DNA from: an uncultured Pseudomonadota bacterium
GTDB taxonomy: Bacteria; Desulfobacterota; Binatia; Binatales; Binataceae
DNA length: 64,000 bases
Direction of reading: 5' to 3'
Assembly: GCA_963837035.1 (NCBI GenBank)
Contig: CAWIMH010000031.1
Coordinates: 11,571-75,570, forward strand
Below the pieces are notes generated by a model, which saw only the letters and a list, made by a program, of their open reading frames with translations, had not been told where the DNA came from and ran no database searches. The position numbers were made by a program, and so were the translations under genes. Positions 1,719 through 54,117 of the stretch are shown in pieces. Within the stretch, counting starts at the first letter, position 1. Each line of letters opens with the position of its first letter.

Positions 1719-1735
1719 TCCCCTCTATGGGGGGA
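1719..1735 (-). promoter_or_regulatory. TCCCCC-N4-GGGGGA-type operator upstream of the hydroxyacyl-CoA dehydrogenase
   Basis: TCCCCTCTATGGGGGGA; minus-strand GAGGAT hexamer at 1695-1690, 23 nt away. Confidence 0.6.
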
Positions 1736-1896
1736 CGGTGCCCAATCACTTCGAGCGATTCTCCAGCGCCGCGGATCCGCGACGCGCTCGTCGCGACCTT
1801 CCCGCGTCGCTCTGGGATCTCGGCAGATCAGTGGTTACATTCAAGCAGGAGCGTCCTTAGTTGATCTCGGAGAGAGCCGAATATCGAGATTTCGGA

Positions 1897-3618
1897 TCAG
1901 TGGACGAGGGCCGTCTTCGCCACATCCACGATCTCGTTCGCTTGGCTATTGAGTACCGCCTTCATCATCCATAGGCTGAATCCCTTCGCCTGCTCGAGCT
2001 TGATCTCCGGCGGCATGACGAGCTCCTGCCGGTCAGTCAATACGTCGATGACGGCAGGACCCTTTTGGGCAAAAGCGGTTGAGATTGCTGATTTCAGCTG
2101 GCTCGGCTCCTTCACGCGCACGCCATAGATACCCATGGATTCGGCCATGCTCGCGAAATTCGGATTGTCGAGCCGCGTACCCATTGGCAGAAATCCGCCG
2201 GCTTTCATCTCGATGTCGACGAAGCCCAGCAGTCCGTTATTGAAGATGACAATTTTGATCGGCAGCTTAAAGTGGCGCACGGTCAGCAATTCACCCATGA
2301 GCATGCCGAACCCGCCATCACCCGACATGGAAATAACTTGCCGATCGGGCATCGCAAACTGAGCGCCGATGGCCTGCGGCATCGCGTTGGCCATTGACCC
2401 ATGCAAAAACGAGCCCAGCAGCCGGCGCTTGCCGTTCATTTTGAGATATCGGGCCGCCCACACGATGGGCTCGCCCACGTCACAGGTGAAAATCGCATCC
2501 TCGCTGGCGAGATCGCTCACCACTTTTGCGACCAGCTGCGGGTGAATCGGTGTGTGTTTGGACTGCTCGTTCGCGAGATCGTCGAGACCCTTCCGGGCTT
2601 TCGCATAGTGGCGGACGGCGGCACTCAGATGCGAATCGTCGCGCTTCTCCGACACTCGGTCGGTCAGTCGCGATAGGACTTCGCGCACGTCCCCAATCAC
2701 GCCGAGATCAAGCCGGCAACGGCGGCCTAGATTTTCGCCGCGAATATCGATCTGCGCGATTCGCGCCTTCGTCGGATAGAATTGCCGATACGGGAAATCG
2801 GTGCCGAGCATGAGCAAGGTATCGCAGCCCTCCATGGCGTGGTATCCGGAGGACCATCCGACGAAACCCGTCATCCCAACATCGTAGGGATTGTCCCATT
2901 CGACGTGCTCCTTGCCGCGCAGCGCGTGCACGATGGGCGCCTTGAGTTTGGCTGCGAGGGCTACCACGGCATCGTGCGCGCCTGCGCAACCGGCGCCGCA
3001 TAGGATCGTCGTTCTTTCGCCGCTTTCCAGAAAGCCGGCCAGGTCCTCGATGTCCGCTTCGGCCGCACACACGCGAGGCAATCGGGGCACCGGGTTGGGA
3101 GAGGGTGCCCGCGGTCCCGCGTCTTTCAAGGCGACATCACCGGAAATCACAATGACGGCGACGCCCTGTTTCGCGACAGCCTCGCGAATCGCCGTTTCGA
3201 GGATTCGCGGCACCTGGATCGGATCCGAGATCAGCTCGACGTAGTGGCTGCATTCCTTGAAAAGCGATTGCGGATGGGTTTCCTGAAAATAGCTGGAGCC
3301 AATCTCGGTGCTCGGAATATGCGCTGCGATGGCCACCACCGGCACTCGGTTGCGATGGCAGTCAAAGAGCCCATTGATCAGGTGCAAATTGCCGGGGCCA
3401 CAGCTTCCGGCGCATACGGCGAGCTCGCCCGTCAGCTGCGCCTGCGCGCCGGCCGCAAACGCGGCGACTTCTTCGTGCCTGACGGGAATCCACTGGATCT
3501 TGTCGCGCACGCGCAGCGACTCGGTGATGCCGTTGAGCGAATCGCCCACCAGTCCGTAAATACGGCGCACATTGGCCGCTTCGAGCGTCTCAACTATCCG
3601 GTCCGCAACATTGGCCAT
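1897..3618 (-). CDS. poxB: Ubiquinone-dependent pyruvate dehydrogenase (pyruvate oxidase)
   Basis: Start MANVADRIV at 3618 with [44 protein letters not shown], ThDP motif GDGG...FNN, C-terminal [16 protein letters not shown]. Confidence 0.95.
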
Positions 3619-3728
3619 CTCAAACCTCCATTGTGCGCCGCACAGAAATGGCACCGCAAACGCTAACGCTATCGGGTTCGCGGCTGTGCGGCGGAAGCGA
3701 TGGTGCCGCAACACATCGAAAACATTCA

Positions 3729-3744
3729 TCCCCCCTTTGGGGGG
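3729..3744 (-). promoter_or_regulatory. Operator for poxB
   Basis: TCCCCCCTTTGGGGGG; minus-strand CACCAT at 3705-3700, 23 nt away. Confidence 0.7.
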
Positions 3745-3844
3745 CTATCCGCTCCCGTAGACCAGCAGCTCGCAATACTGCTGTTGGAAGCAAACAGGTT
3801 TCACTGTGGCCAGGAACCTGCGCCAGTCTGCGATGTAGGTTGCT

Positions 3845-3860
3845 CCCCCCTTTCGGGGGA
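3845..3860 (+). promoter_or_regulatory. Operator for the MscS/cNMP channel gene
   Basis: (T)CCCCCCTTTCGGGGGA; TACGAT at 3884-3889, 23 nt away. Confidence 0.72.
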
Positions 3861-3938
3861 GATAGGCAGACCGGCGCGTGCATTACGATGCACGTAACGG
3901 CGCGTCGCGCAAGCGTTCCTATTAGGCGGCAAAACACA

Positions 3939-51935: not shown

Positions 51936-52085
51936 TACGGAACCACTGATTTTCCTCGAACCGGTCAACCGACCGACCCGGGAACGCACTGAACCAAAAA
52001 TCGTTTGCTCGTGCGTCGCGGGCTGGGTGCGGATACGTACACGCCCAGGCGCGTTAGACTATAAGCAAACCTCGGAGCGGGCGTT

Positions 52086-52946
52086 ATGGCAGTCCTACAA
52101 GTGATCGAATCACGCCAACGAGACCTCGGCGGTTTTGTGGTGCGCCGCGTGTTGCCTTCGGGCGAACGGCAAATGGTCGGACCTTTCATCTTTTTCGATC
52201 ACTTGGGCCCGACTCAATTTCCTCCAGGGCAGGGCATCGACGTCAGGCCGCATCCGCATATTGGGCTCGCGACCGTGACCTACCTCTTTTCGGGATCGCT
52301 CTCGCATCGCGACAGCTTGGGCTCCGTGCAGGAGATTCGACCCGGCGATGTCAATTGGATGAGCGCCGGGGAAGGTATCGTGCATTCGGAACGGACCCCG
52401 CCGAAATCTCGGCCGAGTGGCCCGCACATCCACGGCATTCAAAGCTGGGTCGCGTTGCCGGACGGGGAGGAGGACGGCAAACCCTGGTTTGCTCACACTG
52501 CAGCAGCGTTGCTGCCGCGCCTCAAGCTAGGTGCAGTCAATCTTTCAGTGATTGCGGGCCATGCGTTCGGCGTGCAGTCGCCGGTGCAGGTGTCGTGGCC
52601 GACGCTGTACGTCGACGCCGAGTTGGCGCCCGGCGCGACGCTCGAGGTACCACCAGAGCACACGGAACGGGCCGTATATATGGCGGAAGGCAGGTTGATC
52701 ATCGGCGAGACGCAATTGACCGAGGGTCAGCTCGCGATCTTGGAGCCTGGCGCTAGCGTCACGGTCCGTGCCGTGAACGCTTCCCGCATCCTATTGCTCG
52801 GCGGCGAACGCTTTGCGAAGCCGCGCTTTATAGAGTGGAATTTCGTCGCCTCCTCGCGCGAACGCATCGAGCACGCCAAGGAGCGCTGGCGTGAGCGGGA
52901 ATTTCCGAGCGTGCCGGGGGAAACAGAATTCATTCCGCTGCCGTAA
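52086..52946 (+). CDS. Pirin-family protein
   Basis: VGPFIFFDH, RPHPHIGLATVTYLF, HRDSLG, VNWMSAGEGIVHSE, WNFVAS. Confidence 0.95.
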   Translation: MAVLQVIESRQRDLGGFVVRRVLPSGERQMVGPFIFFDHLGPTQFPPGQGIDVRPHPHIGLATVTYLFSGSLSHRDSLGSVQEIRPGDVNWMSAGEGIVHSERTPPKSRPSGPHIHGIQSWVALPDGEEDGKPWFAHTAAALLPRLKLGAVNLSVIAGHAFGVQSPVQVSWPTLYVDAELAPGATLEVPPEHTERAVYMAEGRLIIGETQLTEGQLAILEPGASVTVRAVNASRILLLGGERFAKPRFIEWNFVASSRERIEHAKERWREREFPSVPGETEFIPLP

Positions 52947-52980
52947 GCTCAGCAGAGCACGCTTAGACGCATCGAAGTGC

Positions 52981-53703
52981 TCAAACTGCAAGCCACGCCG
53001 CGACCCCCATCAGTACGACGAGGATCTGACTCACGCGATCTTTGATGGCAAAGACCAGGGGATCGTCCGGCATCCGCCCGCGGTGGGCGGTCAACCACAC
53101 GTAACAAACCCAATACAGCAGCAGCACGAAGGTGGCTCCGATGAACTCGGAGCGGCTGTAAAGAAGCTCGACAGAGGAACTTCCGAGATACTGCGTCAGC
53201 ACCAGGGCCGACACGATCCCGCTGCCGCCGCCCAGCGCCAGAATCACCTCCCGATCCTCGAGCCTATAGGCGCGGGCGCGGGCTGCCGCTCCGTCGCAAG
53301 CGCTAAGCAGGGTGAGTTCCGCGTAGCGCTTGACCAAAGCAAGACTGAAGAAGAGCAGCACCGCAACGAGCCCGATCGCCATCGATCGGGGCAGCGCCCA
53401 GGAGGCAATCGGCCGGTAGCGCTTGTGCGGGTGCAGCCGGTCGGCCGGCGCGTCATGCAAATCATTGAAGACGTAGATGCTCGAGGCGCAGAGACTGAAG
53501 GCGACAAAGACGCGGGTCGCGGCGCCGAGAGGCTGAAAATCGCTCAGCCGGTGCGCCGCCGCGAGAGGAATGAATACGAGCAAGTTTTTCAGCCACTGAT
53601 AGGGCCGCATCGTCTCGAGCGCTGCGCCGATGACCGACGCCGCGCTCAAACTGGGAAGCGCTGACCGGGAACTGCCTGACTCAGGAATCGCGGACATGGT
53701 CAT
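52981..53703 (-). pseudogene. UbiA-family prenyltransferase (decaprenyl-phosphate phosphoribosyltransferase-like) with apparent internal in-frame deletion
   Basis: MRPYQWLKNLLVF, YVFNDLHDAPADRLHPHKRYRPIAS, then directly FFSLALVKRYAEL and DDPLVFAIKD; the central TM segment is missing. Confidence 0.7.
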
Positions 53704-53877
53704 GGCACGTACAGCACACTCGATAGAAAATCTTGTATGAAGGTGGCACCCTTGTCTCCGAGGTCCTAATGCATCACTCCCGCAAGGACTCAAATCCAGG
53801 CGTGTGCGCAACGTAACAGGCGTACTTGCGCAAATATGTGTATGACGACGATACGCTGGAGAGAGTCGTCGGGCGCA

Positions 53878-53893
53878 TCCCCCCGACGGGGGA
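53878..53893 (-). promoter_or_regulatory. Operator for the UbiA-family gene
   Basis: TCCCCCCGACGGGGGA (perfect); minus-strand TATCGT at 53853-53848, 24 nt away. Confidence 0.7.
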
Positions 53894-54101
53894 TGTCGGC
53901 CGAATACGTACGCGCGCCAGTCCAAACATTAGCCGTATACAGACCGGCCAAATCTCAGCCATGCACCAGGCTGCATCCCTGTTCTGTATTTCCGCGAGTG
54001 GACGGATGATTTCTAAACGACGTGGTGCATCGTTGCGAATTTGCTGATGCTGGTCTGCAGCCACGCTGCGATCTGCTCGCGCGATCGCGAACGTACGGGC
54101 G

Positions 54102-54117
54102 CCCCCTTTTTGGGGGA
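54102..54117 (+). promoter_or_regulatory. Operator for a short plus-strand transcript
   Basis: CCCCCTTTTTGGGGGA; TAACTT at 54141-54146, 23 nt away. Confidence 0.68.

Follow-up and report, generated by a model that had tools for sequence, protein, structure and literature searches.

A conserved 16-bp dyad ahead of ten predicted promoters is a candidate operator of a LuxR-type regulator in Steroidobacteraceae-like bacteria

Introduction

NarL of Escherichia coli binds a C-rich 16-bp inverted repeat (7-2-7), and StyR and TodT bind 16-bp palindromes of the form 6-N4-6, in boxes that are A/T-rich and lie further upstream than the element described here. MalT recognises G-rich boxes and activates from sites overlapping the -35 element, and FNR, CRP and LuxR-type activators working in class II geometry occupy sites centred at -41.5 or -42.5. 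RamA, which controls central carbon metabolism, acts through functional sites made of tandem tracts 4-5 nt apart, much like C5-N4-G5. Here we describe TCCCCC-N4-GGGGGA, a 16-bp dyad of the same overall length and symmetry as the NarL repeat. It stands ahead of ten predicted promoters in a 64,000-nt stretch of DNA (hereafter the window) that covers positions 11571-75570 of the 76-kb contig C31 (CAWIMH010000031.1) in assembly GCA_963837035.1 (5.83 Mb, 35 contigs). We read the dyad as very probably the operator of one LuxR-type activator that would switch on a respiratory and efflux gene set, and on balance we lean towards a MalT-like protein encoded on the same contig as that activator.

A palindrome in fixed register with ten predicted promoters

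The window contains five perfect copies of TCCCCC-N4-GGGGGA (at 5439, 21026, 21609, 33011 and 53878), where 100 dinucleotide-preserving shuffles gave an expectation of 0.00. Three further dyads carry one mismatch (3729, 3845 and 16022) and two carry two (1719 and 54102). Allowing up to two mismatches, the window yields 18 matches, a figure that includes frame-shifted duplicates of the same sites, against 4.3 +/- 2.2 expected. An earlier note on this DNA, made from the letters alone, had listed these ten dyads as intergenic, five of them perfect and two with the same 16-mer. We verified all ten positions, the shared 16-mer is that of sites 21609 and 33011, and every dyad either falls clear of the genes that we called or sits at the very 5' end of a longest open reading frame (ORF). 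The gene calls come from our own codon-usage script, not from a standard gene finder, and were combined with domain scans. The predicted promoters, each extending from the dyad through a -10-like hexamer, are as follows.

1690..1734, minus strand: dyad 1719-1734 (two mismatches), hexamer GAGGAT; predicted promoter of a 3-hydroxyacyl-CoA dehydrogenase/HEAT gene (3-1655)
3700..3744, minus strand: dyad 3729-3744 (one mismatch), hexamer CACCAT; predicted promoter of a ubiquinone-dependent pyruvate dehydrogenase (PoxB-type) gene (1897-3729)
3845..3889, plus strand: dyad 3845-3860 (one mismatch), hexamer TACGAT; predicted promoter of an MscS-type channel gene with a cNMP-binding domain (ends at 5402)
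5439..5483, plus strand: perfect dyad, hexamer GACACT; predicted promoter of YtcA / HlyD-type / FUSC / OEP efflux genes (5492-9989)
15993..16037, minus strand: dyad 16022-16037 (one mismatch), hexamer CAATCT; predicted promoter of a second, PoxB-like gene for a thiamine pyrophosphate enzyme (about 14270-15808)
20997..21041, minus strand: perfect dyad, hexamer CAGAAT; predicted promoter of cytochrome o ubiquinol oxidase genes cyoABCD (20968 down to 16070)
21609..21653, plus strand: perfect dyad, hexamer TAACTT; predicted promoter of acyl-CoA dehydrogenase / enoyl-CoA hydratase / CoA-transferase genes (21737-24582)
32982..33026, minus strand: perfect dyad, hexamer CACACT; predicted promoter of isochorismatase / amidohydrolase / MFS-HlyD-OEP efflux genes (32889 down to 24852)
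53848..53893, minus strand: perfect dyad with a 24-nt spacer, hexamer TATCGT; predicted promoter of a UbiA-family prenyltransferase gene (longest ORF 52981-53925)
54102..54146, plus strand: dyad with two mismatches, hexamer TAACTT; predicted promoter of a 104-aa ORF (54166-54480) and a four-PAS histidine kinase gene (55025-57526)

The first PoxB-type gene matches family NF006591 above its cut-off (967 versus 792 bits). The second is frameshifted in the window, with at least three frame changes, and the 104-aa ORF gave no family match.

Each dyad was oriented by the gene behind it. Nine of the ten sites have an intact promoter-proximal half, GGGGGA, the exception being 1719. The hexamer nAnnnT follows at offset 23 on the gene side of nine of the ten, with 53878 having it at offset 24. 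At the same offset on the far side it occurs at 0/10 sites. Given a background frequency of 3.6-3.8% for nAnnnT, the probability of this pattern is about 1e-12 for a single offset, and correction for 31 offsets brings it to about 4e-11. The hexamers, the 23-nt spacing with its single 24-nt case, and the nine perfect proximal halves had all been reported correctly in the earlier note. When up to three mismatches were allowed and the hexamer was required, no further credible promoter emerged, and none lay upstream of the regulators.

If the hexamer occupies -12 to -7, the dyad is centred near -43.5. The six bases that follow it match TTGACA poorly, and in a scan of six dyads (1719, 3729, 3845, 5439, 21026 and 21609) no sigma-70 consensus promoter (at least 9/12) was called, nor any terminator-like hairpin or T tail. 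Promoters this weak fit dependence on an activator, and the missing terminator calls argue against terminators. With the dyads placed ahead of the -35 region, and with promoters of such apparent weakness, repression is less likely than activation. The arrangement resembles class II promoters of LuxR-type and CRP/FNR-type activators, in which the dyad likewise abuts or overlaps the -35 element, is centred at -42 to -44 and accompanies poor -35 hexamers. It differs in that our centre, reckoned from a -10-like hexamer rather than from a mapped start, would be about -43.5 instead of the -41.5 or -42.5 of FNR/CRP and LuxR. The class II geometry proposed earlier, with a centre at -42/-43, is supported in its fixed spacing, and the centre would fall close to the proposed one; that the sites activate, and do so through a single regulator, is what we infer.

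In listings and abstract openings from a literature coverage biased towards open access, we found no description of TCCCCC-N4-GGGGGA as an operator, which agrees with the earlier statement that the box was unrecognised as a described regulon.

The dyad and its spacing are conserved in relatives

To find relatives, the response regulator encoded on C31 was used as a query against 185,579 species genomes. The best matches (78-95% identity) were metagenome-assembled genomes (MAGs) labelled Steroidobacteraceae or uncultured Gammaproteobacteria. In five of the genomes (G061-G065) the window genes are mostly 85-96% identical at the amino-acid level, and their order is kept.

The earlier note had suggested looking for a spacing bias and for the box upstream of orthologous operons, and both are present. 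G061-G065 and two further genomes together hold 35 sites with at most one mismatch, and the 70 orientations of these sites give 31 nAnnnT hexamers at offset 23, versus at most 8 at any other offset from 15 to 31. Offset 23 therefore stands out in the relatives as it does in the window. Ahead of cyoA, the sequences of the five closest genomes align only from the dyad onwards, and the conservation then extends over CAGAAT as far as the start codon. The window and nine further genomes (G061-G065, G149, G187, G189 and G190) have a dyad with an offset-23 hexamer before cyoA, and in those nine the spacer and -10 letters vary. Even the remoter genomes, whose cyoA is 60-74% identical, have hexamers at offset 23 (GAGGAT, CACGAT, GATGAT, CAACAT and CAAGGT). 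The efflux dyad at 5439 is similarly kept in G061-G064, G187 and G189.

The consensus is sharp among 42 distinct oriented promoters, a set chosen for having the hexamer that includes orthologous sites, so that its members are not independent. C occupies positions 2-6 in 37-42 of the 42 and G positions 11-15 in 38-42; the middle of the spacer is rich in A/T, 30/42 have a T after the proximal half, and the distal T is present in 27/42. In the dyad we have a genuine and conserved cis-element, set at a constant distance from -10-like hexamers. We also observed single dyads with an offset-23 nAnnnT on both sides (L116:165, L118:9426, L129:3122 and window 3845), a layout in which one dyad may serve two divergent promoters.

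Of the gene set, the remoter genomes keep cyoABCD, the PoxB-like gene and the YtcA-type efflux set along with the dyad; in G149 these genes make up a single run immediately behind it. A locus of Mycoplana dimorpha, a distant alphaproteobacterium (L055, 1348-11068), has pirin, amidohydrolase and isochorismatase genes divergent from a trio of PAS kinase, FixJ-like regulator and REC protein; target-type genes of this locus also occur in the window, and the TCCCCC-type dyad is absent from it.

A different picture emerged in the family to which the assembly is assigned, where 15 of 61 genomes, the assembly itself (G000) included, contain TCCCCC-N4-GGGGGA. Twelve copies in G014 (L007-L017) and two of the three sites in G007 (L029 and L031) are part of a repeat resembling a miniature inverted-repeat transposable element (MITE), mostly at gene 3' ends. 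This MITE-like or repetitive extragenic palindrome (REP)-like repeat spans about 130 bp or more, has conserved flanks and a second long hairpin, and contains the 16-bp pattern as its inner hairpin; its copies often lie between convergent genes. Among the other own-family relatives inspected, the pattern belongs to longer GC-rich inverted repeats, falls within coding sequence or stands alone as a single copy, and the counts of response-regulator orthologues in these relatives showed no link to the motif. We rejected the idea that the window regulon extends to the own-family relatives: the pattern there is a different phenomenon from the window sites.

The MITE-like copies raise the question of whether the window dyads could likewise be something other than protein operators, that is, a piece of a REP/MITE-type repeat, a transcribed hairpin acting as a terminator or in RNA stability, or a -35 element recognised by an alternative sigma factor. 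We consider this very improbable. The dyad could form a 6-bp G/C stem with a 4-nt loop, and sites 5439 and 16022 lie 33-37 nt past stop codons. Nevertheless, T tails and terminator calls are lacking at the six dyads scanned, and by our own gene calls seven of the ten sites are not close behind a gene end. The flanks of the ten sites are unlike one another and unlike the G014 and G007 repeat, and a -35 element would have no use for the conserved distal half. The strict 23-nt spacing on the gene side only, together with conservation that starts at the dyad, points to a promoter element.

Two GerE-type proteins are candidates for reading the dyad

The conserved gene run of C31 encodes three DNA-binding candidates, namely a SARP-like, a FixJ/StyR-like and a MalT-like protein, two of which have a GerE helix-turn-helix (HTH). 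Because a palindrome is suited to a GerE-type dimer, the choice narrows to the MalT-like protein and the response regulator. The regulatory genes are as follows.

33845..38487, minus strand: conserved regulatory run of five genes, including the response regulator
33845-34723, minus strand: SARP-like protein, in the regulatory run
34820-35209, minus strand: single REC protein, in the regulatory run
35351..36031, minus strand: FixJ/StyR-like response regulator (REC and GerE domains), the rival dyad-binding candidate
36057-37220, minus strand: PAS histidine kinase with a FixL-like kinase core, adjacent to the response regulator
37975-38487, minus strand: PAS protein, in the regulatory run
38919..43094, minus strand: large AAA-ATPase/sensor histidine kinase, broken into at least four ORFs in the window
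43129..44571, minus strand: MalT-like TPR and LuxR (GerE) regulator without an ATPase domain, the favoured dyad-binding candidate

The presence of GerE regulators on the contig agrees with the LuxR half of the earlier suggestion of a LuxR or CRP/FNR type. The other half found no counterpart, since Pfam scans of chosen C31 ORFs, which did not cover every ORF, revealed no CRP/FNR-type regulator, and the sole cNMP-binding domain among the scanned ORFs is that of the MscS-type channel protein.

The MalT-like protein is predicted from a 480-aa ORF, in which Pfam recognises TPR_MalT (residues 42-375) and GerE (PF00196; 418-473, E 1.9e-16) and nothing else. Its true start is probably further upstream than 44571, because some 330 nt upstream are conserved and the stop-to-stop frame, of 531 aa, runs to 44724. 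The protein, of about 480-600 aa, lacks an N-terminal STAND/AAA NTPase domain, none being recognised by Pfam in the 480-aa ORF. With MalT and the related LAL regulators it has in common a TPR_MalT region followed by a C-terminal GerE HTH. It differs from them in the missing N-terminal NTPase and is not MalT proper, aligning to positions 414-896 of the 903 in the NCBIfam MalT model with 73 bits versus a cut-off of 537. Remoter MalT-like homologues in G093, G394, G434 and G448 have open frames of 918-973 aa and may be full length. Just upstream of the conserved block before the gene, we noted a perfect 13-bp inverted repeat with a 5-nt loop (44921-44951, 0 expected). It is imperfectly kept in G062, G064 and G065, and could be an operator controlling the MalT-like regulator gene itself.

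The best solved-structure match to the HTH of the MalT-like protein is the C-terminal domain of NarL (1je8, E 8e-7), with the recognition-helix motif TVK.HVK aligning. NarL differs in having a receiver domain where the MalT-like protein has a TPR sensor region, and the letters of its half-sites differ as well. In Corynebacterium glutamicum, the LuxR-type RamA resembles our system in its G/C-tract half-sites: the motifs most frequent for it are tracts of four G or four C (PMC4847777). It is a regulator of acetate and central metabolism. RamA is actinobacterial and has another N-terminal region, and only the HTH matches (32 bits versus a cut-off of 500); the MalT-like protein is not an orthologue of RamA.

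In the mechanism that we propose, the dyad (with GGGGGGA-T on its promoter-proximal side) would be bound by a dimeric LuxR/GerE-type factor, for which we put forward the MalT-like protein (43129-44571). The dimer would sit directly upstream of the poor -35 region, centred near -43.5, and recruit RNA polymerase in a class-II-like manner, much as NarL- or LuxR-type dyads in class II positions do, leading to activation. Dimer binding is suggested by the symmetry of the site and by its genomic linkage. The controlling signal would reach the protein through its TPR region or through the neighbouring kinases, which, with the FixJ-like regulator and the single REC protein, would probably act upstream of or beside it, and the PAS kinase encoded within the regulon would feed back on the system. 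The earlier note had spoken of one activator for about nine operons without naming a regulator; that a single protein serves them all is again what we infer, and to this we add a preference for the MalT-like TPR-LuxR protein over the FixJ-like response regulator.

Evidence for this preference comes from genomes in which the two proteins are separated. G061 carries six dyads within 30 kb on its contig C1, and a 33%-identical MalT-like gene with a conserved HTH lies inside this cluster, divergent from the cyoA dyad; the 91% response-regulator orthologue lies away from the dyads on contig C4, as do the kinase, REC and SARP genes next to it. In G186, G187, G189 and G190, MalT-like homologues of 35-38% identity share contigs with dyads, the nearest being 0.45 to 6.6 kb away. 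We also examined samples that were not ascertained through the response regulator, comprising 121 genomes of the family of G062 and 301 of its order. With 5-13 candidates scored per genome, MalT-like matches were found in 3/121 and 6/301 genomes, respectively. The sole perfect dyad of G093 lies about 90 nt upstream of the likely MalT-like start, in a divergent intergenic region; in G149 a dyad stands 35-50 nt past the MalT-like stop and directly before cyoA; and in G454 six dyads fall within 27 kb around the MalT-like gene. All three genomes have only 52-53% FixJ-type paralogues. No dyads were found near the remotest MalT-like matches (30-31%; G394, G434 and G448). Conversely, G188, whose response regulator is 79% identical, has neither a MalT-like match at E 1e-20 or better nor a perfect dyad, and upstream of its two cyoA homologues the best matches have at least three mismatches, the level expected by chance. 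G171 (regulator 68%) also has neither a perfect dyad nor a MalT-like match. We favour the MalT-like protein because these separating genomes (G061, G093, G149 and G454 versus G188 and G171) point that way. Furthermore, across 11 MalT-like proteins the recognition-helix region is nearly invariant despite an overall identity of 31-38%.

Several points weigh against this assignment. The nAnnnT criterion for a -10 element is loose. In the lineage of the window (the window and G062-G065) the MalT-like gene and the response regulator are in one run and so inseparable, and the nearest dyad is 8-15 kb from the former versus 1.7-12 kb from the latter; moreover, no dyad precedes the MalT-like gene in the window. 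The separating cases are few (three genomes on one side and two on the other), all are MAGs that may be incomplete, and kin are not independent, while the large samples had only 5-24 candidates scored per genome. The solved structure closest to the response regulator is that of StyR (1yio, E 2.7e-58), whose 6-N4-6 site fits the shape of the dyad equally. MalT itself binds asymmetric boxes, its sites being asymmetric repeats and not palindromes.

Some of these points favour the response regulator (35351-36031) as the binder of the same operator in the same geometry, which we nonetheless regard as unlikely. Its phosphate would then come from the PAS kinase next to it or from that of the regulon (55025-57526), and the single REC protein would serve as a phosphate sink or inhibitor, a scheme that we consider just as doubtful. 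The domain composition suits such a role, with REC joined to a strongly matching GerE domain (E 2e-21) and a kinase with a FixL-like core next door, and a histidine kinase within the regulon would close a feedback loop. StyR/TodT and FixJ are thus close described counterparts. The best family is FixJ (NF006900), and FixJ itself (5xso, E 7.9e-45) follows StyR among the nearest solved structures; the window regulator differs from FixJ in scoring 224.4 bits, below the cut-off of 255, and the comparative data separate it from the dyad. Orthologues of 87-95% identity are present in every close dyad-bearing genome, and dyads occur at 5 of the 13 loci with a regulator of at least 78% identity versus 1 of the 67 below 78%. 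This presence is by construction, because the genomes were found using that very protein as a query. Several genomes speak against the regulator: in G188 and G171 it comes without a perfect dyad and without any dyad ahead of cyoA, G093, G149 and G454 have dyads with distant paralogues only, the regulator of G061 is on a different contig from the dyad cluster, and at locus L041 of G063 an 89-90% paralogue has no dyad within 10 kb.

In the literature searched, including PMC3224230 and PMC4321377, nothing usable was found on the box sequences of StyR or TodT. Around remoter homologues of the regulator, other perfect 6-N4-6 palindromes were mostly coding-sequence repeats, with one intergenic candidate. 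This candidate, the A/T-rich CTATAC-N4-GTATAG, occurs near homologues of about 60-65% identity (L075:9890, L083:4378, L084:4453, L087:4341, L086:3768 and L101:10620), and its 16-mer is identical in four of the six loci (three Rhizobium records and one Caulobacterales MAG). It may represent the true operator type of the response-regulator family.

Finally, the dyad could be read by a heterodimer of the two GerE proteins, by the SARP-like protein or by a regulator encoded elsewhere in the native genome, all of which together we find quite improbable. RcsB, which pairs with auxiliary LuxR-type partners, offers a model for a mixed pair. The two half-sites are indeed unequal, the proximal one being perfect at nine of the ten window sites and the distal T being kept in only 27 of the 42 promoters, and the MalT-like, response-regulator and SARP-like genes are syntenic in the lineage of the window. 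Dyads nonetheless occur without response-regulator or SARP orthologues nearby, as at locus L141 of G149, where no SARP match was found, and the SARP gene of G061 is on C4 with the response regulator, away from the dyads. SARP proteins, moreover, are known for binding direct repeats, not palindromes.

Contig C31 appears foreign to its assembly

Across the whole assembly, all five perfect dyads and 8 of the 18 copies with at most one mismatch are on C31. The parts of C31 beyond the window contain no copy, since with up to two mismatches allowed the contig has 18 matches, just as many as the window. The resemblance of the window genes to Steroidobacteraceae-like MAGs is not shared by the rest of the assembly, whose RpoB (contig C35) is 86-88% identical to own-family genomes versus 61-63% to G061, G062 and G064. 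Tetranucleotide distances rank 25-kb pieces of C31 11th-21st of 218, which makes them unusual without being extreme; pieces of C24 and C29 lie near C31 in tetranucleotide space. We therefore read C31 as foreign to the rest of its bin, probably a mis-binned contig or else a very recent transfer from a Steroidobacteraceae-like lineage. The apparent confinement of the box to one island is explained by this foreign origin. The earlier description of the regulon as island-wide holds insofar as every perfect copy of the assembly is on C31 and native-type genomes also cluster their sites (6/13 within 30 kb in G061, 10/17 within 131 kb in G064 and 4/10 within 13 kb in G063), and is in part an effect of binning a contig of a different lineage. 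A reversed-pattern control for these site counts gave 2 to 8 matches per genome.

We rejected a plasmid or known mobile element as the source, since megablast of 50 kb of the window against PLSDB gave only gene-sized matches of 71-77% identity, with no related plasmid on record there. The sequencing runs that share words with window positions 15500-24500 are all soil metagenomes, the best DNA run containing 0.23 of the sampled words; no RNA runs were listed among these matches, a blank that is uninformative either way. Several genes on C31 are split over frames, including the second PoxB-like gene (14270-15808), the AAA-ATPase histidine kinase (38919-43094), FUSC (6825-8577) and probably the 5' part of the MalT-like gene (43129-44900), reflecting either decay or indel errors in the consensus. 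Left of the window, C31 carries an IS605-type OrfB/TnpB gene (G000:C31:9362-10555, locus L136) with OrfB_IS605, Cas12f1-like TNB and HTH_OrfB domains, and ankyrin-repeat ORFs lie near it.

Discussion

The dyad is real, conserved and apparently undescribed, and the operator and regulon that we read from it would be of a familiar kind and mechanistically ordinary. For users of the assembly it matters that a 76-kb contig is flagged as foreign to its bin, and the case illustrates that confinement of a motif to one island can be a binning artefact. To our knowledge, TPR-LuxR proteins without an ATPase domain are mostly uncharacterised, and a defined operator for such a protein would be a useful anchor.

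The genes behind the ten promoters comprise two PoxB-type pyruvate:quinone dehydrogenases, cyoABCD, two efflux systems, an MscS-type channel, acyl-CoA enzymes and a PAS histidine kinase. Tentatively, and with less assurance than we attach to the operator as such, we suggest that an ATPase-less relative of MalT reads the C5/G5 palindrome as the output of an unusually dense sensory cluster (the AAA-ATPase histidine kinase, two PAS kinases, the FixJ-like regulator, the single REC protein and the SARP-like protein), thereby controlling a chain of PoxB and cytochrome bo together with efflux and the channel. The finding provides a testable regulon, with an operator, ten promoters, a candidate regulator and a physiological theme, for soil Gammaproteobacteria known here only from MAGs. 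If the suggestion is true, uncultured soil Steroidobacteraceae-like bacteria would keep clustered a self-contained overflow respiratory module that leads from pyruvate through quinone to oxygen.

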